Of a DNA stretch of 32,000 nt, positions 4,240 to 31,170 are shown piece by piece. The first letter of the stretch is position 1. Each line of letters starts with the position of its first letter. This stretch comes from Sinorhizobium meliloti (lineage in GTDB: Bacteria; Pseudomonadota; Alphaproteobacteria; Rhizobiales; Rhizobiaceae). Both the position numbers and the translations under genes were made by a program. The notes below the pieces were generated by a model. That model was not told where the DNA came from and did not search any database. It saw nothing but the letters and a program-made list of their open reading frames with translations. The DNA lies in the NCBI RefSeq assembly GCF_017876815.1, contig NZ_JAGIOS010000001.1:2910001-2942000 (forward strand), read 5' to 3'.

Positions 4240-5277
4240 ATGACGTTTGATGAACTCCTCGCCAAATACGAGCCGGCGCTCGCCGCCGCATTCCGGCAGG
4301 CTATCGAGGAGATCAAGTCGGGCATCGTCCTCCGCGTCGTGGTCGAGCGGCTGGAGCGCGGCGACGTCAACGGCGCGGTCGATGCCATGCAGATCGAGCC
4401 GGAGGTGTTCTCCGCGCTCGAAATTGCCCTGCAGGACGCTTTCAACGCTGGTGGCACCAACGCAGTCGCTGAGCTACCGAAGGTCATGGACCCGCAAGGC
4501 AATCGCGTGATCTGGCGCTTCGGCGTCCGCAATCCTGTTGCCGAGGCGATACTGCGCGACCTGTCGTCGACGATGGTCACGCACATCACCGATGACCAGC
4601 GACAGGGCATCCGCCTGGCGTTGGAGCAGGGGCTTGCCAGAGGCGCCAACCCGAGATCCACGGCCCTCGACGTCGTCGGCCGGCAGAGCCGCGTCACCGG
4701 CCGCCGAGAGGGCGGCGTGATCGGTCTGACCCGGTACCAGATCGAGTTTATCGAGCGGGCGCGCCTGCATCTTGATTCCGGCGACCCGGACCTGATGAAC
4801 CGGTATTTCGAGCTCAAGACGCGCGACAAGCGTTTCGACCGAACCGTTATGGCAGCCATCAGAGCAGGGAAGCCGGTGACCGGCGAGGCGCTGGCCAAGA
4901 TCATCGGCCGGCTGCGCGATAAGAACCTGCTTCTCCGCGGCGAAATGCTGGCGCGGACCGAGACCATGATTGCGCTCAGCTCCGCCCGCGACGAGGCGAT
5001 GCGGCAGCAGATCGAGGCCGGCAAGGTCCGGGCGCAAGACGTCACGAAGGTATGGCGTTCCGCCGGCGACAGCCGTGTGCGGCACACCCATCGTGTCCTC
5101 AACGGCAAGGCCGTCGGCATGGATGAGGTATTTCAGAGCCCATCTGGCGCGCTTCTCCGCTTCCCGGGCGACCCGCGCGCGCCCATATCGGAGATTTCCG
5201 GCTGCCGATGCCGGCTCGAATACAAGGTGGATCACATCGGCGCGGTCGTGCGCCGGTACCGCGCTGAGGTCGTTTGA
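4240..5277 (+). CDS. phage head morphogenesis protein (Mu F / SPP1 gp7 family)
   Basis: The C-terminal motif set ARTE..........D.RVRHTH..LNG......F......L.FPGDP......CRCRL is typical of Phage_Mu_F. Its stop overlaps the start of the next gene (TGATG). Confidence 0.85.
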   Translation: MTFDELLAKYEPALAAAFRQAIEEIKSGIVLRVVVERLERGDVNGAVDAMQIEPEVFSALEIALQDAFNAGGTNAVAELPKVMDPQGNRVIWRFGVRNPVAEAILRDLSSTMVTHITDDQRQGIRLALEQGLARGANPRSTALDVVGRQSRVTGRREGGVIGLTRYQIEFIERARLHLDSGDPDLMNRYFELKTRDKRFDRTVMAAIRAGKPVTGEALAKIIGRLRDKNLLLRGEMLARTETMIALSSARDEAMRQQIEAGKVRAQDVTKVWRSAGDSRVRHTHRVLNGKAVGMDEVFQSPSGALLRFPGDPRAPISEISGCRCRLEYKVDHIGAVVRRYRAEVV

Positions 5278-5723
5278 TGGCAACGCTCTCATTTAGCGCT
5301 GCCGTGGCGCAGTGGGCCGACAAGGTCGAGGGTGCCGTCGAAGCTATCTTCAAGGAGGCGACACAGGAGGTCGTCGAAGAAATGCAGACGCCGGTCGGGC
5401 AGGGCGGCCGTATGCGCGTGGACACCGGATTTCTCCGGGCATCACTGCTCGCGTCCTCGACCGCCATGCCCGCGATCAACGCCGCTGCCAGTCCTGCGGA
5501 AGGAAGTACCTACGCGCCAGACTTTGCTCAGATCGAAGCGGTAATCGCTGGAGCGGACATCGGCGATACGCTCTACTTCGGCTACACGGCATCTTACGCT
5601 GGCTACCGAGAATATGGCGCTAATGGACAGCCCGCCGATGGCTTCGTCAGGCTCGCAGCTCAGAACTGGCCGCTCATTGTGGATCGGAAGGCCTCGGAGC
5701 TGAAGGCTCGTCTGGGGCTTTGA
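5277..5723 (+). CDS. HK97 gp10-family head-tail joining protein
   Basis: ATG at 5277 overlaps the upstream stop. The motif VDTGFLRASL and the ~148-aa size match the HK97 gp10 family. Confidence 0.75.
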   Translation: MATLSFSAAVAQWADKVEGAVEAIFKEATQEVVEEMQTPVGQGGRMRVDTGFLRASLLASSTAMPAINAAASPAEGSTYAPDFAQIEAVIAGADIGDTLYFGYTASYAGYREYGANGQPADGFVRLAAQNWPLIVDRKASELKARLGL

Positions 5724-5929: not shown

Positions 5930-6355
5930 ATGGCGGCAGGCACCGACGCAATCATCTTCAAGGCCGTGACAGGCCGCCTCTTAGCAATGCCCGGTGTATT
6001 GCCGGTTGCCGCGCCGAACGTCGTGTTTCCGGCGGCAGGGCAGCCGCTACCGCCGAAATACCTTCGATTGACCTTCCTGCCCAACCAGACACGTCAGATC
6101 ACCATGGGCAACGATCCGCAACAGAAGCGCGGACTACTTCAGGTCTCAGTCGTTTGGCCGGTCGGGCAAGGGATCATCGGCGCTCTCGATGTCGCCGACC
6201 AAGTGATCGATCACTTCAAGAACCAATCCCTATTCGCCTCTGGCGTGAAGATCACGATCAGCAGCGAGCCGTGGGCGGCGGGCCCGCTCCAAGAGGGTGA
6301 ACGGGTGCAGATCCCCGTCACCATTCCGTACATCGCCTTCGAACCGGAGAACTGA
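5930..6355 (+). CDS. tail terminator / tail completion protein (DUF3168/DUF4128-like)
   Basis: The start is an internal ATG at 5930 (MAAGTDAIIFKAVTGRL...). It lies immediately upstream of the tail tube gene. The pattern P.KYLRLTFLP and the ~140-aa size fit tail terminators. Confidence 0.6.
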   Translation: MAAGTDAIIFKAVTGRLLAMPGVLPVAAPNVVFPAAGQPLPPKYLRLTFLPNQTRQITMGNDPQQKRGLLQVSVVWPVGQGIIGALDVADQVIDHFKNQSLFASGVKITISSEPWAAGPLQEGERVQIPVTIPYIAFEPEN

Positions 6356-6356
6356 C

Positions 6357-6842
6357 ATGGCAAACAAGGCAACGAAGAAGGGCAGCAAGGTCTATGTTTG
6401 CGCCACTGCCCAGAACACCGATCTTATAGAGTCAGCATATGCGGCGCTCACCTGGGTGCAGGTTGGCAAAGTCGGAAACATCGGCGATTTCGGCGCCGAG
6501 TCGACGATGAACAGTTACAACACCCTCGATGAGCCGGTGACCCAGAAACAGAAGGGCACGGCAAACGCCGGGGATCCGCAGATCGAGGTCGCCTCAGTGC
6601 ATGACGATGCCGGCCAGGTCATCCTGCGCACTTTCGGCAACCCCCTCAACCTCGACAACATGGCGATCAAGGTCGAGCGCAACGATGGCGGCGAGGGGTT
6701 CACGAACACGATTTTCTACAGCCGCGGCGTCGTGTCCGGCCCGCTTTATCCTGGCGGCGGTTCCGACGACTTCGAGCTCGAGCGCTTCACGGTCGGCCTC
6801 AACCAGCTGCCGATCCGCGTCAATCCCGCTGTAATCCCGTAA
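6357..6842 (+). CDS. major tail (tube) protein
   Basis: ATG at 6357 has a GGAGAA SD and lies 1 nt after the upstream stop. The 161-aa product (KVYVC ... WVQVGKVGNIGDFG ... YNTLDEPV.QKQKGT.NAGD) resembles TP901-1/GTA-type tail tube proteins and is followed by chaperone genes. Confidence 0.75.
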   Translation: MANKATKKGSKVYVCATAQNTDLIESAYAALTWVQVGKVGNIGDFGAESTMNSYNTLDEPVTQKQKGTANAGDPQIEVASVHDDAGQVILRTFGNPLNLDNMAIKVERNDGGEGFTNTIFYSRGVVSGPLYPGGGSDDFELERFTVGLNQLPIRVNPAVIP

Positions 6843-6856
6843 TCGATAGGTGACCC

Positions 6857-7258
6857 TTGGACATCTCCAAACTCGTCAATTCCGAAGACCTCTTCGAGCT
6901 CAATCTCACCGGCCCGGATACCGATGAGTTCGTAGGTATTCGTTTCATGATCCGTTCCGCGGAGAGCGATGCGGTGAAGCGCGTGGTCCGGCAGCATAGC
7001 GACAAATTCCTCGCGAGCCGGAAGAAGAAGCTTACGGCCAGCAAGGTCGAGGCCGAATATCTCGACAAGGCGGCAGCCTCCGTCGCGTCCTGGGACTGGG
7101 GCGATCACAACTGGAAAGGCGAAAAGCCCGAATGCACCTTCGAAAAGGCTCGCGAGGTTCTCGAAGAGGCCGGCTGGATCTATGACCAGGTCGCCACGGC
7201 CTCAGAGGACCGCGCAAATTTTACGAAGAGCTTGGCGAAAGGCTCTGCGAAGCCGTAG
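6857..7258 (+). CDS. tail assembly chaperone (G-like, zero-frame product)
   Basis: TTG start with an AGGTGA SD. The 133-aa acidic protein lies between the tube and tape measure genes and contains a slippery heptamer near its 3' end. Confidence 0.7.
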   Translation: MDISKLVNSEDLFELNLTGPDTDEFVGIRFMIRSAESDAVKRVVRQHSDKFLASRKKKLTASKVEAEYLDKAAASVASWDWGDHNWKGEKPECTFEKAREVLEEAGWIYDQVATASEDRANFTKSLAKGSAKP

Positions 7259-7596
7259 CGATTGTCGCGCGCTACGACAGCGTCCGAGACAAGGACGGTG
7301 AGACCAGGCGCGAGCGCAACGACAGCTTTGAGGTCGAAAGCCCGGAAGCGGAGGTGCCGGATAACGGTGCCTTCCTCTGGGATTGGTTTTGGGAGCTCCG
7401 GCAGGCGCAGCCGCCTGGGTTCTCCGGGCCAGTACCGATCTCGAACATCGAACTCTCGGTTTGGTGCCAGCTGACTGGCAATATCGTCCGGCGCGAGGAG
7501 CTTGCGATCCTTAGGGCAATGGACGCGCGGTTCTGCGTCGAGATCGAGAAGGAGAGCGAGGCGATCAGGGCGCGCGATGAGTGCTCTATACGATAG
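6857..7596 (+). CDS. tail assembly chaperone GT-like fusion made by programmed -1 frameshift at 7216-7222
   Basis: The -1 frame is open from 7186 to 7596. It encodes ...KFYEELGERLCEAVAIVARYD...FLWDWFWELRQAQPPGFSGPVPISNIELSVWCQLTGNIVRREELAILRAMDARF, a DUF1799/gpT-like motif. This frame has no plausible start of its own before the GTG at 7354. Confidence 0.6.
7216..7222 (+). promoter_or_regulatory. -1 ribosomal slippery heptamer A_AAT_TTT
   Basis: The zero-frame codons gcA AAT TTT fit the X_XXY_YYZ rule. The site lies inside the 73-nt overlap (7186-7258) of the G frame and the T frame. Confidence 0.5.
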
Positions 7597-7664
7597 CCAG
7601 CGACAACGATGACCTACAACTATCCAGGTGCTAAGGCACATGGATGATTTCGCATGGAGGCTAT

Positions 7665-8198
7665 ATGGCAAAATTCGACCCAAAGATCATTCTCGATGAT
7701 GTTCGAAGTCGGGACGTGGCGCTACTCACAATGTTATTGGCGACTGATCGTCAGGCTGTGGCGCTGTTTCGCGTTTATGTGACTTTGGCAGCAGCTTTGA
7801 TATCAGCCGCTGTCGCGGGGGCGATTAAGGCGAATTGGGCGGTGGACATTTGGATCAATGTCGGTGTTGGACTATCCGCATCAGGCCTTGCACTCGCTTG
7901 CTGGTATTGCATAGTCGCAATCAAAACAGCCAAGGTGGGCATGCCTGGGAAAGGGGCCGAATTTTGGCAGTGGGCGCGTCGAGACGACATATCCGAGGAT
8001 GTCGCACTCGACGCGTATCTGACTCAGGCGCTATTTGCCCAAGATACCAATATCGAGGTCAACCGCCGGTCGTCCAATTGTCTACGCATGGCCAAAAGGC
8101 TCGGGGTTGGTTCGGTTGCATTGGGCGGAATTGTAATATTGATCGGATTAAGCGGTTTTGCTTCTACCGCTTGGGAGGCTTTGAGCCGTCTTTTATAA
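7665..8198 (+). CDS. membrane protein with three predicted TM helices (177 aa), unknown function
   Basis: ATG at 7665 has a GGAGG SD 5 nt upstream. Hydrophobic helices are VYVTLAAALISAAVAGAI, IWINVGVGLSASGLALACWYCIVAI and LGVGSVALGGIVILIGLSGFA. GC is visibly lower than in the flanks. Confidence 0.7.
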   Translation: MAKFDPKIILDDVRSRDVALLTMLLATDRQAVALFRVYVTLAAALISAAVAGAIKANWAVDIWINVGVGLSASGLALACWYCIVAIKTAKVGMPGKGAEFWQWARRDDISEDVALDAYLTQALFAQDTNIEVNRRSSNCLRMAKRLGVGSVALGGIVILIGLSGFASTAWEALSRLL

Positions 8199-8271
8199 CC
8201 ATTCTATCCGGCGGCGGAGGTGGCGGTGGTTCGCGCGGCGGCGGCGGGGATGGGTTCTTAGGATCGCTCAT
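8164..8271 (-). CDS. possible 35-aa polyproline peptide
   Basis: Hand translation gives MSDPKNPSPPPPREPPPPPPPDRMVIKDGSKPPKR*. AGGGAG lies 6 nt upstream of the ATG. It is downstream of, and co-oriented with, the secreted-protein gene, and it overlaps the 3' end of the convergent membrane-protein gene. Confidence 0.25.
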   Translation of the reverse strand: MSDPKNPSPPPPREPPPPPPPDRMVIKDGSKPPKR

Positions 8272-8363
8272 GTTTGTCTCCCTTTCCCAGTAACAAATCA
8301 CGAGTCGCAACGTAGAGTCGAGTCAGCTACTTGAACTCTTCCTTGGTGCCGTCCGGAACGCCT

Positions 8364-8759
8364 TCATTTGTCGGCGTCGCGAGCCTGTTTAAAACGGGCC
8401 TGAGACACACGAAGTCTGGTCTGTGTCACGAGGATGCCGTCTAAGCACTTCTGATCGTTCTCCGCCGGTGCTTTCTTTTGATGATCTCGCCGTATTCTTT
8501 TGTCGAAATCGTCAGCAATGATAACGGCGTCGGTCTGCGATTTACCTCCAAGGATGGCGGTCTGTTCGACAGCGGATCGCGCAGCATAATAGTGCGAAGT
8601 CCCCAACGCGTCTTGGCAAAGATATGCCGCGCCAAGGTAAATGAACGCATCTTCCATCATCTGTTTGGCTGCCTTCTGAGCAGCCGCACGGGTATTGGCG
8701 TCAGCGTTGGCCGGGGCGGCACACAACACCAATGCCAAAGCAACCAATATCTTGCGCAT
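8364..8759 (-). CDS. exported protein (131 aa) with Sec-type signal peptide, unknown function
   Basis: ATG has a GGAGGA SD. The N-terminus MRKILVALALVLCAAPANA-DA is a classical signal peptide. The mature part is helical with two Cys residues. The segment is lower in GC. Confidence 0.75.
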   Translation of the reverse strand: MRKILVALALVLCAAPANADANTRAAAQKAAKQMMEDAFIYLGAAYLCQDALGTSHYYAARSAVEQTAILGGKSQTDAVIIADDFDKRIRRDHQKKAPAENDQKCLDGILVTQTRLRVSQARFKQARDADK

Positions 8760-8818
8760 CGTCGTCCTCCGGTTGAATCGACAGGACGATAGCGCACGTT
8801 CTTTGAAAAGGAAAAGCC

Positions 8819-10909
8819 ATGGCAGATGTAGCCACGCTCGGGCTCCAGGTTGAAAGTGGCTCCGTTCAGAAGGGCACCGACGCTCTCAATCAGCTGACGG
8901 GAGCGGCCGCGCGCGCGGAAGCAGCCGCAAATGGGCTGTCGGGCGCTAATCGCGGTGCGACCGGAGCCGCGGCGGCCGCCGCCAAGGCTTATGCAACAGA
9001 AGGTGCCGCTGCGGCGTCAGCGTCGAAGCAGATCGAGATGATGAACCGGGCGGCCAATCAGAACCGCGCATCATCCCGCGGGAATCTTGGAAACATAGCC
9101 GCTCAGTTCCAAGACATTGCTGTCAGTGCGCAGATGGGCATGGGCCCGCTGCAGATTGCTCTTCAGCAGGGCACGCAACTGGCCGCCGTCCTTTCTTCTA
9201 TGGAGAGACCAGTGCAGGGCTTGGGGGCAGCCTTCTTGTCAGTGCTCTCTCCCGTTAGCCTCCTGACGATCGGCATAATCGCGCTGGCGGCCGCTGGCCT
9301 GCAGATGGTTGATTGGGCAAAGCTGGCGCAATCGGCGCTGATGGCCTTGGCGGATGTTCTCGAAACCGTGGCACCCTACGCTGTCGCCGCAGCCGCAGCC
9401 CTGGCGCTGATCTACGCCCCGTCTATCGTCGTTGGCATCGTGAATGTTATCGCGGTTTTGTCGCGCCTCGTAGTCGCGGCTGGGACGGTTGCGGCCAGCT
9501 TCACGGCAGCTTGGTTGGCTGCGGTGGGGCCCGTTGGCTGGGTTATCGCTGGCTTCAGTACAGTTCTCGCGGCTGCAATCATTTTTCGCGAGGAGATGCA
9601 GCAGATCTTTGGGCGCGACCTCGTTGCCGATGCCAAAACAGGCGCCAACTTTGTAATCGGTTCGTTTGTAGCCGCCTATCACGACATCAAGTTCCTTTGG
9701 GATCAATTTCCCAATGTAATCGGAGCAGCTGCAATCGGGGCCGCTAACGCAGTTATCAAAGCCATGACCGATATGGTTCAGCGTGGCGCCGGTCTCATCG
9801 ACAGTTTCGCTTCGAAAGCGAATCAGTGGCTACCGGAAGGGATGCAACTCGGAACGATTGGAGACCTCGGTCTGGACAAGGACTTCCAGTTCGCAAACAA
9901 GTACGCCGAGGAGCTCGCGAAAGCGGCAGACAAGCGTAACGGGCAGATAGCATCCGATCTCAGCGCCGATTATCTCGGAGACTTCGGCGGTGCCATTGCC
10001 AGAGGTGCTTTGGCGGCGACCGGCAAACTCAAAGAGCTTGCCGCAAGTCTGACCGAAGTCGACGAGAAATCGAAGGAGCGCACCGGCGGCAAGAGCGAGC
10101 AGGAGAAGTATTCCGACATCATCGCCGGCGCCGAACGCCAGATCGCGGCGCTTGAGGCGGAGCGTGATGCTATCGGGCTCACGGAGCAGGCGGCAGCCGC
10201 GCTCCGCTACGAGACGCAGCTCCTGAATGAAGCCCAGCAGCGTGGTATCTCGCTCACTGATGCGCAGAAGAGCGAGCTATCGTCACTTGCGCAGGTCATG
10301 GCCTCGATCGAGGAAGAGACCCGCCAGATGGGTATCGCGCTCGATTTTGCTAAAGAAGTAACCGGAGGCTTCTTCGATGACTTCTTCGCGGGAATTGAGA
10401 ACGGCAAATCGGTATGGGAGTCTTTCGGCGACGCGGCTTTGGGGGTGCTTGACCGCATCGCCGACAAGCTGCTGAACGACGTCCTCGATGCCGTGTTTCA
10501 GGTCAGCGGGGCAGGGGCTGGCGGAGGAGGACTCCTCAGTTGGCTCTTCGGCGGTGGCTCAAAGGTGGACCCATGGGCTGGGCTGCGTGGGTATGCGAAC
10601 GGAACGAGCTCCGCTCGTCCTGGCGTCGCATGGGTTGGTGAAAAGGGGCCGGAGCTCGTCCGTTTCAAGGGTGGCGAGGAGGTCATTCCGAACCATCGCC
10701 TTCAACGACCGGCTAATGGCAATGTGGCGCCATCGGGCGGTCAGCTAAACCAGAATGGGCCGCGCGAGATCATCCTTCGGGTGATTGCTGAGGAGGGGCC
10801 GATGTTCAGGCCCGTCATTCGGTCGGAGAGCCGAGGCGTCTCCGTCGAGACCATAAAACAGTATGACGCGGCGAAGGCAAACATCTACCAGAACGGCGAA
10901 GACCGCTAA
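8819..10909 (+). CDS. tail tape measure protein
   Basis: 696 aa, in the expected position. Ala-rich helical N-terminal region, central hydrophobic block, coiled-coil region, and the C-terminal motif GVAWVGEKGPELVRFKGGEEVIP typical of tape measure proteins. Confidence 0.9.
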   Translation: MADVATLGLQVESGSVQKGTDALNQLTGAAARAEAAANGLSGANRGATGAAAAAAKAYATEGAAAASASKQIEMMNRAANQNRASSRGNLGNIAAQFQDIAVSAQMGMGPLQIALQQGTQLAAVLSSMERPVQGLGAAFLSVLSPVSLLTIGIIALAAAGLQMVDWAKLAQSALMALADVLETVAPYAVAAAAALALIYAPSIVVGIVNVIAVLSRLVVAAGTVAASFTAAWLAAVGPVGWVIAGFSTVLAAAIIFREEMQQIFGRDLVADAKTGANFVIGSFVAAYHDIKFLWDQFPNVIGAAAIGAANAVIKAMTDMVQRGAGLIDSFASKANQWLPEGMQLGTIGDLGLDKDFQFANKYAEELAKAADKRNGQIASDLSADYLGDFGGAIARGALAATGKLKELAASLTEVDEKSKERTGGKSEQEKYSDIIAGAERQIAALEAERDAIGLTEQAAAALRYETQLLNEAQQRGISLTDAQKSELSSLAQVMASIEEETRQMGIALDFAKEVTGGFFDDFFAGIENGKSVWESFGDAALGVLDRIADKLLNDVLDAVFQVSGAGAGGGGLLSWLFGGGSKVDPWAGLRGYANGTSSARPGVAWVGEKGPELVRFKGGEEVIPNHRLQRPANGNVAPSGGQLNQNGPREIILRVIAEEGPMFRPVIRSESRGVSVETIKQYDAAKANIYQNGEDR

Positions 10910-11301
10910 TCTTCGATGGATTTCCCGCCTTGGATCACGGTGAAGATGCTTTCGCCGCTCTTAGCCTTCCTCATTGATGTGAGGAATTCCTCCATTTCCT
11001 GCGCCATTACCTCGAAGGCACGTCGTGCACCGGACCGCTGCTCGGGTGTCAATTTCGGATCACTCGCGAATTTCTCCGCTGAGTTGATGTTCGATTTACG
11101 GGCGTTCTCTGTCATGGCCATCAGCGCCTCGTACTGAGATTCATCGATGTTCGATAAAGCGCTTGCAACAAACATAAACATAAAGCGATGGGCATTCGCC
11201 CTGAATTCCAGGTCCGATACTTGCTTGACCAGCTTGCTGTGTTCATCGGCCAAGAGCTGAAGCACCTGCTGGGTTGTCCCGCTGAAATCGATTGTGGGCA
11301 C
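10906..11301 (-). CDS. hypothetical helical cytoplasmic protein (131 aa), antisense moron
   Basis: GTG start at 11301 with AGGGAG 8 nt upstream. Lower GC than the flanks. Its stop overlaps the tape-measure stop (convergent). I recognise no family. Confidence 0.6.
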   Translation of the reverse strand: MPTIDFSGTTQQVLQLLADEHSKLVKQVSDLEFRANAHRFMFMFVASALSNIDESQYEALMAMTENARKSNINSAEKFASDPKLTPEQRSGARRAFEVMAQEMEEFLTSMRKAKSGESIFTVIQGGKSIED

Positions 11302-11364
11302 TGATTCTGCTCCCTAATTCCCTACCGCTGCATATTGCGGCCATTACCCTGGATTGCAACCAAC

Positions 11365-12018
11365 ATGGCTGATCCGATTCCATTGCCGATGCTGCCCTGG
11401 CGAGACTGCCAGTTTGATCCCATCAATCCGACAGACGTTTCCATGATGGAGGGCCGGCGTTCCGAAGAGCAGGCCGCGGGCACTCCATTTTGGAAAGCGC
11501 AATACACGACGAACTGGATGACGCCGGCCTTCTACGGGTTGTTCGATGCTTTTGTCATGAAGTCGAGTTCGCGCGGTGCACCTTTCCTCGGATACGACCT
11601 GTTTCGGCCGCGCCCGATCGCCCACAACAACGGAAAGCCGCTCGCCGGCACGAAAGCAGGGGGAGGGGTATTCAACGGCGGCGCGGTTCTTCAGGCCATC
11701 ACCAATAGCCGAACGGTCGTTGTTGCTGGTCTGCCTGCTGGTTTCAAGCTAACAGCGGGAGATTATGTCGAGTTCAGGATGTCGGCGCTCGTCCGGTCAC
11801 TTCACCGGATCGTCGAGAACGCCACGGCGAACGCCAGCGGCGTGGTCACTCTCTCGATCATGTTCGGCTTGGATACTCAGCATTTCACTACGTCGGCGAC
11901 AGTCCATCTCGAGAAGCCGTCGTGTGTCATGAGTATTGATCCGGGCAGTGTGGCGGCACCGAAATCGTGGGCGGGTCGCGAAGCCTCTTTTTCCGCTACG
12001 GAGATGTTTTTCTCATGA
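11365..12018 (+). CDS. distal tail protein candidate (Dit position)
   Basis: It is the first gene of the tail-tip block after the tape measure and is coupled to the next gene by an ATGA overlap. The start could be ATG 11365 or TTG 11335. Function is by synteny only. Confidence 0.5.
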   Translation: MADPIPLPMLPWRDCQFDPINPTDVSMMEGRRSEEQAAGTPFWKAQYTTNWMTPAFYGLFDAFVMKSSSRGAPFLGYDLFRPRPIAHNNGKPLAGTKAGGGVFNGGAVLQAITNSRTVVVAGLPAGFKLTAGDYVEFRMSALVRSLHRIVENATANASGVVTLSIMFGLDTQHFTTSATVHLEKPSCVMSIDPGSVAAPKSWAGREASFSATEMFFS

Positions 12019-19318: not shown

Positions 19319-19407
19319 GTAAGCGCCGTCTCCGCCCCATTGGACAGGCTGTATTTTGAGGCTGGCTGGGCGTGCGAAAAGGTTTCCAGGACTATCTGGA
19401 GATTTGC

Positions 19408-19851
19408 ATGGCAGATGATGGATTTGTTGGGCGCTACGAAGTTGTCGAGCCGCGCCGCGGAAACCGACGTTGGCCGGATGCTGTGAAGGCGCGGATCGTC
19501 GCGGAAAGCCTTGAGCCTGGTGTTCGTGTTGTTGATGTCGCGCGCCGTCATGACGTTGTTCCGCACCAGCTTTCCTTCTGGCGCCGACAAGCGCGCGAGG
19601 GCATTCTGGCGCTGCCGTTTGAGGCTATGCCGGGCCTGTCGGAGAGCGGCGATGCCGAGCCTGCATTTGTGCCTTTGGCGATTGCGGCAGAGCCGAGCGA
19701 GGCTGTGAGTGTTTTGGCGCCGCCGCTGTCGGAGGCGGTTTCGTCGGTCTTGACGTTGGAGATCGGCCCGGACGTTGTGTTGCGGGTTCCCGGCGATGTA
19801 TCGGTTGAACGTGTGGCGGCCCTGGTGCGCGCCATTCGAGGGACGGCATGA
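19408..19851 (+). CDS. tnpA: IS66 accessory protein TnpA (Orf1)
   Basis: RRWPDAVKARIVAESLEPGVRVVDVARRHDVVPHQLSFWRRQ matches the IS66 Orf1 HTH pattern. Its stop overlaps the tnpB start (ATGA). Confidence 0.85.
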   Translation: MADDGFVGRYEVVEPRRGNRRWPDAVKARIVAESLEPGVRVVDVARRHDVVPHQLSFWRRQAREGILALPFEAMPGLSESGDAEPAFVPLAIAAEPSEAVSVLAPPLSEAVSSVLTLEIGPDVVLRVPGDVSVERVAALVRAIRGTA

Positions 19852-20201
19852 TCGTCGCGGGCCAACGACTGCCGATCCTGGTTGCAACGCGGCCGGTGGA
19901 CTTCCGCTGTGGGCATCAGGCGCTGGCTCTGATGATGCAGACCGAGTTGAAGCTCGACCCGCATTCCGGGGTGACGGTGATCTTCCGGTCGAAGCGCGGT
20001 GATCGTCTGAAAATCCTGGTATGGGATGGCACCGGCATGGTGCTAACCTACAAAATTCTTGAACATGGAAGCTTTGCCTGGCCCAAGGTTCAGGATGGGA
20101 CGATGCGTCTTTCCAGGGGGCAATACGAAGCTTTGTTCGAAGGTCTTGATTGGCGACGGGTGATGGCGCAACGGGTGACGGCGCCGTCGGCGGCAGGGTG
20201 A
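19848..20201 (+). CDS. tnpB: IS66 Orf2 protein TnpB
   Basis: 117 aa. The motifs VDFRCGHQALALMMQ and GDRLKILVWDGTGMVL are typical of IS66 Orf2. Confidence 0.85.
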   Translation: MIVAGQRLPILVATRPVDFRCGHQALALMMQTELKLDPHSGVTVIFRSKRGDRLKILVWDGTGMVLTYKILEHGSFAWPKVQDGTMRLSRGQYEALFEGLDWRRVMAQRVTAPSAAG

Positions 20202-20263
20202 GTATCCGGCCGTCTTTGCATTGTTTTGTTTGGCTTTTTTGTGCTGCCTTGCTATAAGGCCGC

Positions 20264-21916
20264 ATGTCGTCACCCCTTGATCTCAGCCTGTTTCCGAACC
20301 TTCCGCCAGAGGTGGTGAAGGCGTTTGCGGCGATGCAGTTCGAGCTGTCGGTCGAGCGTGCTGCGCGTCAGCATGAGCAGGCTGTGGTGGCCGAAAAGGA
20401 CGCGTTCATCGCCGAGTTGAAGGAACTGATCGAGAAGCTTGAGGGGCAGGTTCACGACTATCGGCGCACGAAGTTCGGGCCGAAATCGGAAAAGCTCGAT
20501 CCGGCGCAGATGGAACTGGCGCTGGAAGACCTTGAAACGGCGATTGCCGAAACACAGGCGCGGATCGCCGCCGTCGAGAAAAAGATCGAAGCAAGCGCAT
20601 CCGATCCGGACAAGGCCGTTCCTCGCAAGGAGCGTAAGGCCCGTGCACTGCCCGAACACCTGCCGCGGGTCGAGAGAGTGATCGAGCCTGAGAGCATCGT
20701 TTGTCCCTGCGGTTGCGGCAACATGGTCCGGATCGGCGAAGACCGGACGGAACGGCTCGACCGGGTCCCGGCGCGCTACGAGGTGATCGTCACGATCCGC
20801 CCGAAATACGCCTGCCCCAAGGGTCGAACGGGCGTCGTCCAGGCCAGAGCGCCGGCGCATCTCTTGGAAGGGAGCTGGCCGACCGAAGCCCTTCTGGCTG
20901 AGATTGCCGTCTCCAAGCATTCCGAACATATGCCGCTCAACCGGCAGGCCGAGGTCATGGCGCGACACGGGGTGCCGATAGACCGCACCGTCCTGGCCGA
21001 TTGGATGGGCAGGACGGGTGCTGCGATCGCGCCGGTGGTCGACCATATGGCCAAACGGCTGCTGTGGGAAAGCACGCGGCTTTATGTCGACGAGACAACG
21101 GCTCCGGTGCTTGATCCGGGGCGAGGCAAGACGAAGACCGGTTATCTATGGGCCGTGTTGCGTGACGATCGCGGCTGGAATGGCTCTGCGCCGTCGGGCG
21201 TGGTGTTCCATTATCGACCTGGGCGTAAAGGCGAATATGCCGCTGAAATCCTCGACGGGTTTAACGGGACAATCCAAGTGGATGCCTACGGTGGTTACTC
21301 TCACCTCGCCACGTCGGACCGGGTGGGTGGCGATCCCTTGAGGCTGGCTTTCTGTTGGGCGCACGGGCGCAGAAAGCTGATCAAGGCCACGCCAAAGAGT
21401 GGATCGCCCATCGTCGACGAGGCGCTGGTGCGGATCGCCGCGCTCTACAAGATCGAAGACAGTATCCGTGGCTCAGATCCCGAACATCGCCGGGCAGTTC
21501 GACAGGACCTCTCCCTCCCGCTGGTGGACGCGTTCTTCGCCTGGCTGGCAGCGCAAGCCAAGCGCGTCTCACGCAAGTCTGACCTCGGAAAAGCCCTGGC
21601 CTATATGCTAACGCGGCAGGACGGGTTCCGGCTGTTCCTGGACGACGGCCACGTCGATATCGACTCCAACCTGGTGGAAAACGCGATCCGCCGACCGGCC
21701 ATGAACCGCCGCAATGCGCTCTTTGCGGGGCACGATGAAGGGGGCCGCAATTGGGCCCGGTTTGCCAGCCTGATCGGCACTTGTAAAATGAACGGCGTTG
21801 AGCCCTACGCCTATCTGTGCGATCTCTTCACCCGCCTCGCAAACGGCCACCTCGCCAAAGACATCGATGCCCTGATGCCATGGGCCTATGCCGCCCGCAT
21901 CACGGCCTCACAATGA
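20264..21916 (+). CDS. tnpC: IS66-family DDE transposase TnpC
   Basis: 550 aa. N-terminal leucine-zipper-like region, the zinc-finger motif CPCGCG...YACP, and the blocks VDETTAPVL, YLWA, QVDAYGGY and CWAHGRRK are typical of IS66 transposases. Confidence 0.9.
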   Translation: MSSPLDLSLFPNLPPEVVKAFAAMQFELSVERAARQHEQAVVAEKDAFIAELKELIEKLEGQVHDYRRTKFGPKSEKLDPAQMELALEDLETAIAETQARIAAVEKKIEASASDPDKAVPRKERKARALPEHLPRVERVIEPESIVCPCGCGNMVRIGEDRTERLDRVPARYEVIVTIRPKYACPKGRTGVVQARAPAHLLEGSWPTEALLAEIAVSKHSEHMPLNRQAEVMARHGVPIDRTVLADWMGRTGAAIAPVVDHMAKRLLWESTRLYVDETTAPVLDPGRGKTKTGYLWAVLRDDRGWNGSAPSGVVFHYRPGRKGEYAAEILDGFNGTIQVDAYGGYSHLATSDRVGGDPLRLAFCWAHGRRKLIKATPKSGSPIVDEALVRIAALYKIEDSIRGSDPEHRRAVRQDLSLPLVDAFFAWLAAQAKRVSRKSDLGKALAYMLTRQDGFRLFLDDGHVDIDSNLVENAIRRPAMNRRNALFAGHDEGGRNWARFASLIGTCKMNGVEPYAYLCDLFTRLANGHLAKDIDALMPWAYAARITASQ

Positions 21917-28052: not shown

Positions 28053-29021
28053 ATGGCCAAGCCATCGTCGAAAACACCGCGCGGCACCTCATCGCCGGAC
28101 CCGATGCCGGAGCGGGTTGATCCATGTCTGGCGATACTAGTCGTACAAGCCGCCAAAAGGGCCGGACAGGGCCTTTGAGATGGGACGGCTACCGTCTGGC
28201 CGTTCACGTGGAGCCGGACAGGGTACGGATAATCACACGCGGCGGCTACGACTGGACGTCCCGCTTTGCTTCAATCGCGGCAGAGGCGCGCCAGCTTGGT
28301 TACGAAACCTTAATCCTCGACGACGAGGCGGTTGTCCTTGACGATCAGGGGCGGTCGGATTTCGGCATGCTTCAGCGCGCGCTCGGTAAGCGACCTAGCT
28401 TGCATGATCCACGCGAAATCATCTTTTTGCTTTCGACCTTCTCTATGTTGATGGTTGGGACCTGCGCCGACTGCCGCTTCGCGAACGCCGGTGGCTGCTC
28501 GACCCCATAGTTGCCGGCCGTGCCGGTGCCATCCGGCTATCGGAAGAGGTTCAGGCCGATGGCGACGAGTTCTTCCGCGTCGCCTGCGAGCACGGCCTCG
28601 AAGGCATCATCGCCAAGCATGTCGAGAAGCCCTATCGGTCCGGCCGGGGCGAGTGGTGGCAGAAGATCACCTGCAAGCGCCGGGATAGCTTCGTGATCGT
28701 CGGCTTCGAGCCTTCGACCGTGCCCGGCCACCTCGGCCGGTTGTTGCTCGCCGCGCGCAAGGGCGACGATCTCGTCTATGTCGGCGGCTGCGCACCGGCT
28801 GGTCACATGAGCTTTCGCGCGAGCTGCGCAAGCTGCTCGAGGGGATGGCGACGAAATCGCCAGCAGTCGTCCTGAGAAGGAAGGGAGCCGTCTTCGTCGA
28901 GCCTGTTCTCGTGGCCGACGTCGAGTATCGCGCCTGGACGGATGACGGCAAGCTGCAGCACGCCTCGTTCAAGGGGATTAGAGAGCGGGCCGACGACGCA
29001 ACGGTGTTCGAATTACAGTGA
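28053..29021 (+). pseudogene. ATP-dependent DNA ligase (LigD ligase-domain-like) pseudogene
   Basis: Ligase motifs are spread over three frames: MPERVDPCLAILV..., then LRWDGYRLAVH...RIITRGGYDWTSRF...ILDDEAVVLD..GRSDFGMLQ, then FAFDLLYVDGWDLRRLPLRERR...EGIIAKHVEKPYRSGRGEWWQKITC...FVIVGFEPS...LLLAARKGDDLVYVGG, then TGWSHELSRELRKLL...VEPVLVADVEYRAWTDDGKLQHASFKGIRE. Motif I KxDG reads RWDG and motif III LDGE reads LDDE. Confidence 0.8.
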
Positions 29022-29173
29022 ACACTCAGTGGGCAAAAGGTTCCGTGCCACCTTTCCAAAGATCGAGTCTATGTCTGACTTTAACGTGATTGGACTAAGT
29101 GACCTTGGTGAATTACCAGTACATTTTTAGGGGTATTATATTAAAGTCGTTCATTAAACCATTATTTTAGAAG

Positions 29174-29197
29174 AGAGCTCGCTCAGGAGCGAGCTCT
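29174..29197 (+). terminator. perfect 10-bp hairpin AGAGCTCGCT-cagg-AGCGAGCTCT
   Basis: The inverted repeat was read directly from the sequence. It is followed by gctttct, a weak T tract. It lies in AT-rich DNA downstream of the ligase pseudogene. Confidence 0.4.
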
Positions 29198-29409
29198 GCT
29201 TTCTATGCACCACCCAACATCCGCGAAGGTGAATCAAGCCGCGAGGCGATGACGCGACCGTATTCGAAATTCCTGTTGCAGATCAGCCAAAGAACAACTA
29301 ATTTTCGGTTTCCAATTCACGAAACGTTCCGCGTTTTTGGGTGTAGGTATCGTACGGCATTGGAAACCGCTTTACTTGATTTGTAGGCTGTTCAGAGAAA
29401 AATAGATTA

Positions 29410-29454
29410 CTCTTAATCAGCGGGTCCACGGTTCGAGCCCGTGATCACCCACCA
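29410..29454 (+). other. 3' fragment of a tRNA-Lys(CUU)-like gene (anticodon loop to CCA); probable att core/boundary
   Basis: CTCTTAA (anticodon loop, CTT) - TCAGC - GGGTC - CACGG TTCGAGC CCGTG (T arm) - ATCACCC A CCA. No matching 5' acceptor strand (GGGTGAT) or D arm occurs upstream, so it is not a complete tRNA. Confidence 0.7.
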
Positions 29455-29568
29455 TTCTTCTCTTCTTCTCAAAGATCCGTTCATTGCTTGCCGGATACCA
29501 ATGCCTTGCTTAAGGCATGGACACTCGTTCCAAGCTTTTGAAAGTACGCGCTTCCGCATGGAAAAGCG

Positions 29569-30030
29569 TTACACATTTTTGCTGGAAGTGCCCAAAGCCG
29601 ACAAGCGGGATTCCGCATAGGCGTCGTGGCCGTCATTTGCCCGTTCGATCTCGTGCGTTGCAGCACGAGCAAGAAATCCAGACCGCGTAAGGCCGTGGGC
29701 TTCGGCGAAGGCATCTATCTGCTTCAGGACACCTTCGGGAAGCGTAACGTTCACTCGAATGGCTCTTTTTGCCTCGGTTTTCACCGCGACGAGAATAGCG
29801 ACGCAATCCCTGTTCTCGGCGTCGGACATGACAACCTCAAGGGAGGAGGGCTCCGGGATGGCCTCGCCGTCCTCTACCAGCCCTTCAATATGCAAGGCCA
29901 AGGCTTCCTCTGCCATAGCGCGCGCGTCGTCGAGGTCGGCACCGGCGGTCACGACGCCGGAAAAATCAGGAAAGGAAACGCCGTAATCGCTCTCGGCGTC
30001 CTTGTGGATCAATCCGATATAGTTGCGCAT
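29569..30030 (-). CDS. hicB: HicB-family antitoxin with C-terminal ribbon-helix-helix
   Basis: YIGLIHKDAESDYGVSFPDFSGVVTAG.DLDDA...AEEAL..HIEG matches the HicB N-terminal domain. RVNVTLPEGVLKQIDAFAEAHGLTRSGFLARAA is a CopG/RHH motif. It lies directly downstream of hicA. Confidence 0.85.
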   Translation of the reverse strand: MRNYIGLIHKDAESDYGVSFPDFSGVVTAGADLDDARAMAEEALALHIEGLVEDGEAIPEPSSLEVVMSDAENRDCVAILVAVKTEAKRAIRVNVTLPEGVLKQIDAFAEAHGLTRSGFLARAATHEIERANDGHDAYAESRLSALGTSSKNV

Positions 30031-30034
30031 GGCC

Positions 30035-30223
30035 TTACCTCAATTTCAAACCGGACTGCTTTTCAATGCTCCTGAGGGTACCGATTGGTAGATCCCTCTT
30101 CGGGTGAGGAACGGTAACCCGGCCGTGCTTTTTCGGATGTTTGAATTGAACGTGGCTGCCCTTGGTCGCAACCTCGTACCATCCGTCCTTCTGCAATGCT
30201 GCAATAATGTCGCCGCTCTTCAT
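30035..30223 (-). CDS. hicA: HicA-family mRNA interferase toxin
   Basis: MKSGDIIAALQKDGWYEVATKGSHVQFKHPKKHGRVTVPHPKRDLPIGTLRSIEKQSGL matches the HicA consensus (GSH..F.HP......TVPHP.KDL..GT...I.KQAGL). ATG at 30223 is preferred over the TTG at 30235. Confidence 0.85.
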   Translation of the reverse strand: MKSGDIIAALQKDGWYEVATKGSHVQFKHPKKHGRVTVPHPKRDLPIGTLRSIEKQSGLKLR

Positions 30224-30233
30224 CTGATACGAC

Positions 30234-30253
30234 AATACACACGCATGTGTATT
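30234..30253. promoter_or_regulatory. palindrome AATACACA-cgca-TGTGTATT upstream of hicA (candidate HicB operator)
   Basis: Perfect 8-bp inverted repeat located 11 nt upstream of the hicA ATG. RHH antitoxins usually bind palindromes in their own promoter. Confidence 0.4.
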
Positions 30254-30399
30254 CGTCCAATGAATTTGTCAAGCCAATCTAAGGCGGCTTTCTCGGATGG
30301 TCTCGAACCGTCGGATCATCAGCTTGTGCTAAAAAAGCCAATATTCATCTCTAACGACCGCCTGGCTGGGACTTCGAAGCGAGTTCGGACGGAGAGTTC

Positions 30400-31170
30400 A
30401 TGCGAGGTTATCTGCTCCTGACGGAGGCGAGAAGCGGGTCGAACTGGCTGGGTTCGCTCGTCAATGGCGCCGGTAATATGGGGCGCTCGAGCGAGTGGCT
30501 CTCGCCCAAGATCCATCGGCTGGATACCGGCGCCTTGTCATGGGACGCATTCTTTCAGGAACTCCTCAGGAAGTGCTCTACGCCGAACGGCGTCTTCGGC
30601 TCGAAGATATTCCCGAACCAGCTTTTCGTGACGCATGAGGTCTATGGAAGGGATTTCATTCAGCATTGCCTCGCCATGCATGACGTTGCGCTCGTATTCC
30701 TGCGGCGCAGGGATACGCTGAGGCAGGCGATATCCTATGCGCGGGCGAGGCAAACACGTAGTTTTGCCGCTCACGTCGAGGGAAGGGCCAATCCCCAATA
30801 CGACTTCGAGCAGATCGCCCGATGCTTTTTCTACATTCGCGACAGCTATGCCTTTTGGCAAAGCTATCTGGAACTCACCGGCGTTGAATTTGCCGAATTC
30901 GTCTACGAGGAGCTCGCCGCCGATCCGATTCCATTCGTCAGCCACTTGGCGGAGCACTTGCAGGTGCCGCTACCGGCGCAGCTGCAGACATCAATGGCAG
31001 TCCAGCGCGACGATCTGACGGAAGAGTGGATCGCCCGCTTCCACGAGGATCGCAGATCTGCGAACCTCCTGGAGGCCTATGACCGGCGCGAACATATTCC
31101 GGGAAAACTCAAGAACTTCGTCAAGTTGGGGACCCGGAGCCTGCGACCGCGGTATCCGTTTGCGTTCTAG
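30400..31170 (+). CDS. Stf0-family sulfotransferase
   Basis: GGAGAG SD. The blocks ARSGSNWLGSL, TPNGVFGSKIF, LRRRDTLRQAISYARARQT, YDFEQI, AFWQSYL...GVEFAEFVYEEL and QRDDLTEEWIARF align with mycobacterial Stf0 as I remember it. Confidence 0.7.
   Translation: MRGYLLLTEARSGSNWLGSLVNGAGNMGRSSEWLSPKIHRLDTGALSWDAFFQELLRKCSTPNGVFGSKIFPNQLFVTHEVYGRDFIQHCLAMHDVALVFLRRRDTLRQAISYARARQTRSFAAHVEGRANPQYDFEQIARCFFYIRDSYAFWQSYLELTGVEFAEFVYEELAADPIPFVSHLAEHLQVPLPAQLQTSMAVQRDDLTEEWIARFHEDRRSANLLEAYDRREHIPGKLKNFVKLGTRSLRPRYPFAF

Follow-up and report, generated by a model that had tools for sequence, protein, structure and literature searches.

The junction between the tail assembly chaperone genes and the tape measure protein (TMP) gene is the site at which the first moron was described, and an insertion hotspot at this place is, as such, a known phenomenon. 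Phage HK97 carries gp15 there, a YebO-like superinfection exclusion moron that encodes an inner-membrane protein, deviates in GC content and is dispensable (PMC3594210). Prophage defence hotspots include the P2/P4 hotspots and the defence loci of mycobacteriophage prophages (cited in PMC10884400), and PycTM, a membrane protein with which we compare one of the proteins below, has been described as disrupting membrane integrity (PMC11224242). We analysed a window of 32,000 nucleotides from Sinorhizobium meliloti (contig NZ_JAGIOS010000001.1, positions 2,910,001 to 2,942,000), which is the late region of a siphoviral prophage and in which an island of 1.2 kb separates the chaperone and TMP genes. 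Comparison with related prophages indicates that the junction is very probably a dispensable, hypervariable moron hotspot with two cassettes. One of these holds the gene for a membrane protein (MEMB) together with a convergent polyproline micro-ORF (open reading frame), and the other is a slot for exported-protein genes, occupied in the window by a gene that we call EXP. The features of the hotspot, in coordinates of the window, are the following.

7354-7596, plus strand: tail assembly chaperone, T part, left anchor of the hotspot (Pfam Phage_TAC_18, E=2e-7)
7597-8818: island between chaperone T and TMP
7578-8326: cassette 1, MEMB and polyproline micro-ORF, with limits taken from L009, a prophage without it
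7656-7660, plus strand: GGAGG Shine-Dalgarno sequence of MEMB, 4 nt before the ATG
7665-8198, plus strand: MEMB, 177-aa inner-membrane protein with three predicted transmembrane (TM) helices, from the homologue alignment
8164-8271, minus strand: polyproline micro-ORF for the 35-aa peptide MSDPKNPSPPPPREPPPPPPPDRMVIKDGSKPPKR, which shares 35 nt with the 3' end of the convergent MEMB gene
8317-8322, minus strand: CTCGAC motif, candidate -35 element of the polyproline gene, 46-51 nt upstream of its ATG
8327-8818: cassette 2, exported-protein slot and control region
8327-8353, minus strand: relic of 27 nt, left from the 3' end of a gene that held the slot before, reading DGTKEEFK and a stop
8364-8759, minus strand: EXP, 131-aa exported protein, with GGAGGA 5 nt before the ATG
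8760-8818: divergent control region of 59 bp, conserved in the window, L003, L009, L010, L013, L014 and L015
8819-10909, plus strand: TMP, right anchor of the hotspot (Pfam TMP_2, PHROG 8892)

A first-pass annotation of this DNA had described a low-GC island with three ORFs, and its description agrees with our data. The 60-nt line 7681-7740 has exactly 28 G+C, as had been counted, while lines outside the island have 34-43. The GC content of the island is 0.537, against 0.601 in each of the flanks 6000-7596 and 8819-10400, and 2% of the 1222-nt windows across the 32 kb are as low. G+C at third codon positions (GC3) is 0.53 in MEMB and 0.57 in EXP. It is higher in the tail genes, with 0.75-0.79 in the three upstream of the island (those for the major tail protein and chaperone parts G and T) and 0.67 in TMP. 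The three-TM protein on the plus strand and the exported protein and polyproline ORF on the minus strand are all present with the lengths given before, both Shine-Dalgarno sequences can be read directly, and the intergenic region between EXP and TMP is indeed 59 bp long. Two marks of a moron are found at this locus, namely 1.2 kb of extra DNA between genes that are adjacent in relatives, and deviating GC and GC3.

The core genes were mapped on 13 syntenic tail modules besides the window, from prophages in genome and metagenome assemblies and from two isolated phages. L001, L002, L016 (about 120 bp) and L017 have about 0-0.3 kb between chaperone T and TMP. The gap measures 0.5 kb in L012 and 1.0-1.3 kb in four modules (the window, L003, L014 and L015), and L013, L009 and L010 have the longest ones, of 2.5, 3.4 and 3.7 kb. 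In RHph_X3_2, a distant relative, the gene just upstream of TMP matches the chaperone T part of the window and ends 8 bp before TMP, which bears out the view that the island splits two neighbouring genes; in Rivra, likewise a distant relative, the corresponding gene ends 3 bp before TMP, and the two genes upstream of TMP are annotated only as hypothetical proteins. The cargo at the junction also varies, with eight related Rhizobiaceae prophages differing in what they carry there. MEMB is found there in the window and L003; L009 carries Arc, ANT, pRha and DUF6338 genes; L013 carries DUF4238 and a protein with a weak, sub-threshold ClpP match; and L014 and L015 carry genes of unknown function. 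In the Ensifer prophage L010 the cargo (6995-9659) includes an ABC-ATPase and its partner that match PADLOC defence candidates (PDC-M55A, E=1e-47, also NsnB-like, and PDC-M55B, E=1e-8), and a DUF6693 gene adjoins EXP. At the 3' end of the slot gene, L014 (about 7520-7550) and L015 (about 7600-7630) have a strong GC-rich hairpin, GCCCGC-TTCG-GCGGGC followed by TTTT, which looks like a terminator for the plus-strand cargo and has no equivalent in the window.

This comparison of what is present or absent at exactly this junction, in relatives that lack the island or carry other cargo, identifies it as an accessory island. The opposite reading, in which its ORFs encode common virion or assembly proteins or are remnants with no function, could appeal to their position inside the tail operon and to the lack of a known function. 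It is hardly credible, given that the ORFs come and go among syntenic relatives, that signal peptide and TM topology are unfit for tail parts, and that the sequences show purifying selection: mean column identity is 62% over 16 sequences of MEMB and 78% over 8 of EXP, and substitutions in the micro-ORF are biased to third positions. The junction resembles prophage defence hotspots in its fixed position between core genes, in its fast exchange of cargo and in the PDC-M55-like pair of L010. It differs from them in its location within a tail operon, that of a siphovirus lineage of Rhizobiaceae, and in having a sub-slot that keeps a putative promoter region, ribosome-binding site and first codons while the exported protein is swapped.

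Alignments with two relatives show, at the level of DNA, the two-cassette structure of the hotspot. Between the window and L009 homology covers 6800-7577, breaks, and begins again at 8328, so that the MEMB part alone differs. Between the window and L003 the identity is 94% over 6800-8353 and homology begins again at 8740, the body of the exported-protein gene being the sole differing part. EXP occurs without MEMB in L009, L010 and L012, and MEMB occurs without EXP in L003, L004, L007, L027, L028 and L029, which include five other kinds of site. Because a mosaic breakpoint at 8327/8328 separates the two genes and each is found without the other, MEMB and EXP are, as judged from these sequences, not one unit and assort independently.

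This result bears on the earlier proposal that the membrane and periplasmic proteins form a single superinfection exclusion module that blocks TMP-dependent DNA entry in the manner of HK97 gp15. The choice of gp15 as a precedent was apt, since it occupies the very same junction, exactly between the tail assembly chaperone and the TMP as the island does here, and the window does have one inner-membrane and one periplasmic protein encoded by adjacent genes. The pairing itself does not hold: the two genes occur independently with the breakpoint between them, and S. meliloti contigs with listed members of EXP clusters far outnumber those with listed members of MEMB clusters. Neither protein resembles gp15/YebO or a known superinfection exclusion (Sie) protein in Pfam or PHROGs, where the matches (PHROG 25606 and 27949) are both to families of unknown function. 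In addition, gp15 is a small single gene, unrelated in sequence, while the window has two cassettes, a three-TM 177-aa protein plus micro-peptide and a separate exported-protein slot. We consider a joint exclusion module very unlikely.

The ORF of MEMB runs from 7644 to 8198, and we place its start at the ATG at 7665, giving 177 aa, since the homologues begin there. Its hydrophobic segments lie at about residues 32-54, 62-86 and 146-168, and the AlphaFold2 (AF2) model has three long helices with a mean predicted local distance difference test (pLDDT) score of 76. The conserved motifs are K..LDD.R.RD on the N-terminal cytoplasmic helix, DRQA..LFRVY leading into TM1, two cysteines in TM2, the loop PGKGAEFWQWA, and a helix AYL..Q..N..VN..S..L..AKR.G that leads into TM3. 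Close homologues are rare, with 16 clusters whose members come from Sinorhizobium, Pseudochrobactrum and Bosea. When 1.84 billion representatives were searched with a profile, 180 relatives came up at E<=1e-3 (representatives at 50% clustering), mostly of 160-180 aa, and a metagenome scan with the MEMB alignment (A1) yielded no confirmed locus. Searches of PDB sequence profiles with A1, A2 (the EXP alignment) and A3 (the broad alignment) gave chance matches only. Genes of this family were found at six kinds of genomic site.

Window and L003: chaperone/TMP junction
L004: between HNH and the small terminase
L027: upstream of the small terminase of another prophage
L006, L007 and L025: between a Dit-like gene and baseplate genes in a myovirus-type Bosea prophage
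L029: between DUF6950 and a tail-tip gene
L028: Boseaceae chromosome, next to Prok-E2/ThiF genes

In L028 the MEMB and polyproline module (5001-5595) lies outside any recognisable prophage, between a gene for a 1267-aa protein and a Prok-E2_A/ThiF cluster, and these surroundings may be a defence island.

At all six kinds of site a convergent polyproline ORF lies directly downstream of the MEMB-family gene. The peptide is MSDPKNPSPPPPREPPPPPPPDRMVIKDGSKPPKR in the window and L003, MSEEKPPAPPTPRQEPPPPPPTDRMVIKDGSVLPKR in L004, MSNDKPPPPPPPQPSAPPPDRMGVKDGIRPPKS in Bosea and MSNNEPPPPPPPPPPPPDRMIVRDAPKPSARK in L028, and L018, L019 and L021, whose MEMB relatives are about 25% identical, have MAKPPPPPPPPPTTIQKGSVP... 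at the same position. We aligned nine sequence-distinct MEMB-family loci, and all nine have an ATG, a purine-rich Shine-Dalgarno-like run upstream of it (GGGAGA, 5 nt ahead of the ATG, in the window) and a TAG or TAA stop; the nine versions overlap the 3' end of MEMB by 32-35 nt or abut it. Across the family the peptide is 32-37 aa long, and the pairing persists from 95% down to about 25% MEMB identity.

The substitution pattern in the micro-ORF is that of a coding sequence. Substitutions at codon positions 1, 2 and 3 number 4, 4 and 17 between the window and L029 and 8, 5 and 22 between the window and L004, with 14 synonymous against 7 non-synonymous codon changes in the first comparison and 16 against 8 in the second. 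Between the window and L003 there are three nucleotide differences, all silent, and the peptide is identical. In a six-frame translation of 331 kb, 21 of the 31 runs of at least five prolines lie directly after MEMB-family genes. The CTCGAC motif is found upstream of the polyproline ATG, exactly or with one mismatch, in five of the six contexts compared, and would be a candidate -35 promoter element of this gene. The conserved start, Shine-Dalgarno sequence and stop, the third-position bias, the placement of the proline runs and the recurring CTCGAC motif together indicate that the ORF is a real gene, by all these sequence signs under selection at the protein level. The peptide, listed before as merely possible, had thus been underestimated: it is a conserved gene and the partner of MEMB. 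We conclude that it was not annotated by NCBI, because the locus tags of MEMB and EXP are consecutive, as are their accession numbers. An identity of the peptide as an Rz1-like spanin was rejected, as it has neither a signal sequence nor a cysteine.

MEMB and the polyproline ORF very probably form a functional pair. The linkage expected of a toxin-antitoxin system is present, with a small partner that overlaps or abuts MEMB in nine of nine loci. Type I toxin-antitoxin pairs with convergent, 3'-overlapping transcripts exist, for example bsrG/SR4 in a Bacillus subtilis prophage, and the pair described here is similar in that the 3' end of a membrane-protein gene overlaps that of a small convergent one, in a prophage-borne, mobile unit. 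It differs in that MEMB is much larger and in that the small gene is under protein-level selection and is not merely an antisense RNA. Our literature search found no precedent for a polyproline peptide with an antitoxin or anti-phage defence role, nor for a stand-alone PycTM, which is absence of evidence only. No description of the MEMB-polyproline pairing or of the exported-protein replacement slot was found in the searchable literature.

The first-pass annotation had loosely compared MEMB with SLATT/PycTM-type pore effectors. The PycTM part of this comparison gained partial support, and the SLATT part did not stand. Among 117 MEMB-family members scanned singly, seven match the PADLOC PycTM profiles, with best E-values of 1.6e-5 and 7.5e-5; the closest 48 relatives, scanned as a concatenated sequence, gave no PycTM match. 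The matches were located on P0103, P0150, P0140, P0154 and P0101 and are colinear with the profile, over positions 28-149 of 160 in P0103 and 13-144 of 160 in P0150. The family of the window MEMB (A1) and the bridging subfamily (A4) are clearly homologous, by the profile alignment obtained with hhalign (99.8% probability, E=1.8e-27, 156 columns). MEMB is like PycTM (PF18967; PADLOC PDLC02363 and PDLC02364) in its length of about 160-180 aa and in the colinearity of a minority of its family with most of the profile, and it is probably a remote PycTM homologue. For SLATT, the NCBIfam SLATT_1 score of the window protein is noise (E=0.24, 11.4 bits against a cut-off of 41), and no SLATT family occurs among the Pfam matches of the 117 relatives at E<=0.01. 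In the profile scans of the island proteins there was one weak EccD match (E=9e-4, 18 bits, cut-off 95), which we attribute to transmembrane composition. In the bridging subfamily an 81-aa conserved gene follows the membrane-protein/polyproline pair (L018 4262-4507, L019 3073-3318 and L020 1341-1586), and it may be a third component in this PycTM-like branch.

The neighbourhood of MEMB is not that of Pycsar. In the window chaperone T precedes it and the polyproline ORF, EXP and TMP follow, with no adjacent PycC, and no cyclase Pfam family was found within 1.7-6 kb per side in L003, L004, L007, L018, L019, L021, L027, L028 and L029, a check that covered seven distinct MEMB-family contexts with Pfam calls for the neighbours. 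No cyclase adjoins P0174, P0127 and P0177, when the bridging subfamily was searched for Pycsar operons. Since no PycC cyclase adjoins MEMB in the window or in any context with such calls, the MEMB module is, by its gene neighbourhood, not a Pycsar system. A further difference is that the window MEMB matches no PycTM profile. We know of no report of a conserved polyproline partner for Pycsar, and a literature search found none.

The remote PycTM similarity without a cyclase, in a gene borne by phages, could also fit an anti-defence decoy, a PycTM look-alike that would poison or titrate a cyclic-nucleotide effector system of the host. Phages are known to counter Pycsar (PMC9117128). MEMB shows no sign of nucleotide binding, the decoy would leave the conserved polyproline partner unexplained, a copy also lies at a chromosomal non-phage site, and the idea is pure analogy. 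We consider it highly improbable.

The second cassette behaves in a different way, with the gene replaced and its surroundings kept. EXP begins with MRKILVALALVLCAAPANA/DA, where the slash marks the predicted cleavage site; by inspection, the signal peptide (codons 1-19) has MRK, a hydrophobic core and an ANA/DA cleavage site of the AXA type. Two cysteines of the mature region are invariant, and the signal-peptide cysteine of a candidate lipobox is not kept in P0023 and P0024. From this variable lipobox cysteine and the two invariant ones, EXP is predicted to be a Sec-exported periplasmic protein; an identity as a lipoprotein or o-spanin was rejected for the same lack of conservation. The AF2 model is an all-helical bundle with a mean pLDDT of 89.5, and EXP has no Pfam, PADLOC or NCBIfam match. 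In a set of 5.8 billion sequences its homologues make up only 8 clusters, each of them from Sinorhizobium/Ensifer or metagenome assemblies, and on contigs that are long enough (L009, L010 and L012) they always lie 59-60 bp from TMP and divergent from it. UniRef A0AAW9U1E7_RHIML labels a variant of EXP as 'Type VI secretion protein', and nothing in our data supports this label.

Across the prophages the slot holds four non-homologous signal-peptide genes in the same place and orientation. Besides EXP, the occupants are the following.

L003 and L013: 153/154-aa cysteine-rich protein
L014: 130-aa protein
L015: 103-aa protein

The control region of 59-60 bp is kept although the exported genes differ. 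Its conserved parts include two translation signals, the Shine-Dalgarno sequence of the slot gene and the ribosome-binding site of TMP, as well as an inverted repeat and the block gacgatagcgcacgttct. The inverted repeat, CGTCCT-N14-AGGACG at 8766-8791, overlaps the Shine-Dalgarno sequence of the slot gene and shows partial conservation among relatives; its possible roles are those of an operator or of a hairpin in the RNA that masks the Shine-Dalgarno sequence. The window and L003 become homologous again about 20 nt within the part of the gene that encodes the signal peptide, so that the first few codons are kept. At the other end of the slot, the relic 27-mer is identical or has one mismatch in L003, L009, L010, L013 and four IMG/VR loci. 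Longer versions of it read VLYEDGTKEEFK and a stop, and match the C-terminus of the L014 exported protein, AVLYEDGSKEEFK and a stop. This match implies that the slot once held an L014-type gene and was overwritten several times. The proposal that the 59 bp in front of TMP are the source of the minus-strand expression signals is consistent with the conservation of this region across differing cargo, and together with the CTCGAC motif it is suggestive of the island having its own expression signals. We infer that serial replacement of the exported gene under fixed signals reflects an arms race, for example over an envelope block of superinfecting phages.

Overall, we lean towards the explanation of a hotspot with a MEMB/polyproline module and an exported-protein slot, to which we assign the following functions. 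MEMB would be a membrane-perturbing effector; membrane disruption is a plausible mode of action, by analogy with PycTM. The polyproline gene would restrain it through an antisense transcript over the 3' end of MEMB, through the peptide, or through both. The peptide would bind the conserved aromatic cytoplasmic loop of MEMB. Polyproline helices are classic ligands of aromatic grooves, and the most conserved cytoplasmic loop of MEMB contains FWxW plus a tyrosine. Runs of at least seven prolines need elongation factor P (EF-P) and are slow to translate (PMC11611912, PMC4890201). With such slow, EF-P-dependent translation, peptide supply could be a sensitive read-out of translational health, and it would drop once an infecting phage upsets gene expression in the host. 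The release of MEMB would then abort the infection, or the pair would act as an addiction module, without any cyclase signal. EXP would be made in the lysogen from the 59-bp region and act in the periplasm against superinfecting phages.

That MEMB and the polyproline gene are a defence or toxin-antitoxin-like module working roughly as outlined is a serious possibility, to which we give somewhat less than an even chance. The more specific idea is that they represent a previously unrecognised, cyclase-independent class of abortive-infection or addiction modules, with a labile antidote (peptide, antisense or both) that reports translation status, and it seems rather unlikely; under it, the module would hop between prophage insertion sites in several genera of Hyphomicrobiales.

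Several results weigh against this explanation. The link to PycTM is transitive and rests on modest E-values among hydrophobic proteins. The window MEMB has no PADLOC match at E<=1, no Pfam match at E<=10 and no significant match in NCBIfam, and thus matches no PycTM, SLATT, holin or other profile. The precomputed PF18967 (PycTM) tag of P0103 was not reproduced by a direct Pfam scan. Foldseek searches at E<=0.001 found nothing for the MEMB model in PDB, where the top hits were BAR domains of a generic long-helix kind, and nothing for the EXP model in PDB and BFVD, where the top hit, LemA, was likewise a generic long-helix match. Scans for sigma70 promoters and intrinsic terminators, with E. 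coli-type consensus, scored no better than shuffled sequence. MEMB has the orientation of the late operon in all phage contexts (five types), and no conserved promoter or DNA was found upstream of MEMB across the contexts compared.

From the last two observations, MEMB may act late in the lytic cycle and not in the lysogen, for example as a holin-like protein, an antiholin or a factor in lysis timing, with the timing set by the polyproline gene. The lack of a conserved MEMB promoter, whereas the polyproline gene has a recurring upstream motif, would fit this, as would the existence of pore-forming PycTM relatives and the weak Phage_holin_3_6 matches of 2 of the 117 relatives. These matches are confined to two members at E of about 1e-3, and the window MEMB has none. 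MEMB is absent from most close relatives of the lineage (L009, L010 and L013-L015), which argues that it is not a core lysis gene; its insertion sites are spread over head and tail modules, including the tail operon of the window, with none in lysis cassettes; and the L028 copy stands outside any prophage, beside Prok-E2/ThiF genes. The reading deserves weight, although we consider a late lytic role unlikely.

MEMB and the polyproline gene are a concrete, clonable two-gene candidate for a new defence or toxin-antitoxin mechanism, and their pairing hints that effectors of the PycTM-like kind are able to act where no cyclase is present. The polyproline case also indicates that annotation misses micro-ORFs at MEMB-family loci. 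The exported-protein slot is a natural cassette system and a possible source of periplasmic phage-exclusion factors from rhizobia, bacteria in which resistance encoded by prophages has effects on inoculant strains and on the ecology of phages.

Exact copies of the window proteins are present in S. meliloti chromosomes, under the names hypothetical protein or tape measure protein. A megablast search of 6800-11400 against INPHARED phages gave no match, nor did tblastn with MEMB and EXP against phages or with MEMB against plasmids, and an Rfam scan of 7000-11500 gave a chance microRNA match only. The remaining tail genes next to the hotspot are listed below.

6357-6842, plus strand: major tail protein
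6857-7258, plus strand: tail assembly chaperone, G part
11335-12018, plus strand: distal tail protein

A second small island lies between TMP and the distal tail protein, at 10906-11301 on the minus strand. It consists of a 131-aa ORF (PHROG 14807, unknown function; GC 0.52) that shares the 4 nt at its 3' end with the TMP stop region. As TMP abuts or overlaps the distal tail gene in L003, L009, L010 and L013, this appears to be another moron slot. The protein is common in Sinorhizobium, its exact sequence alone being present on 412 contigs. All other 1222-nt windows with a GC content as low as that of the chaperone/TMP island lie at about 28.8-30.5 kb, and this stretch (about 28800-30500) is the sole other part of the window with island-like GC (0.51-0.53). 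Finally, three co-oriented ORFs of 159, 117 and 550 aa at 19372-21916 match PHROG transposase families, in a layout that resembles an IS66-family element inserted just after the tail-fibre genes of the prophage.

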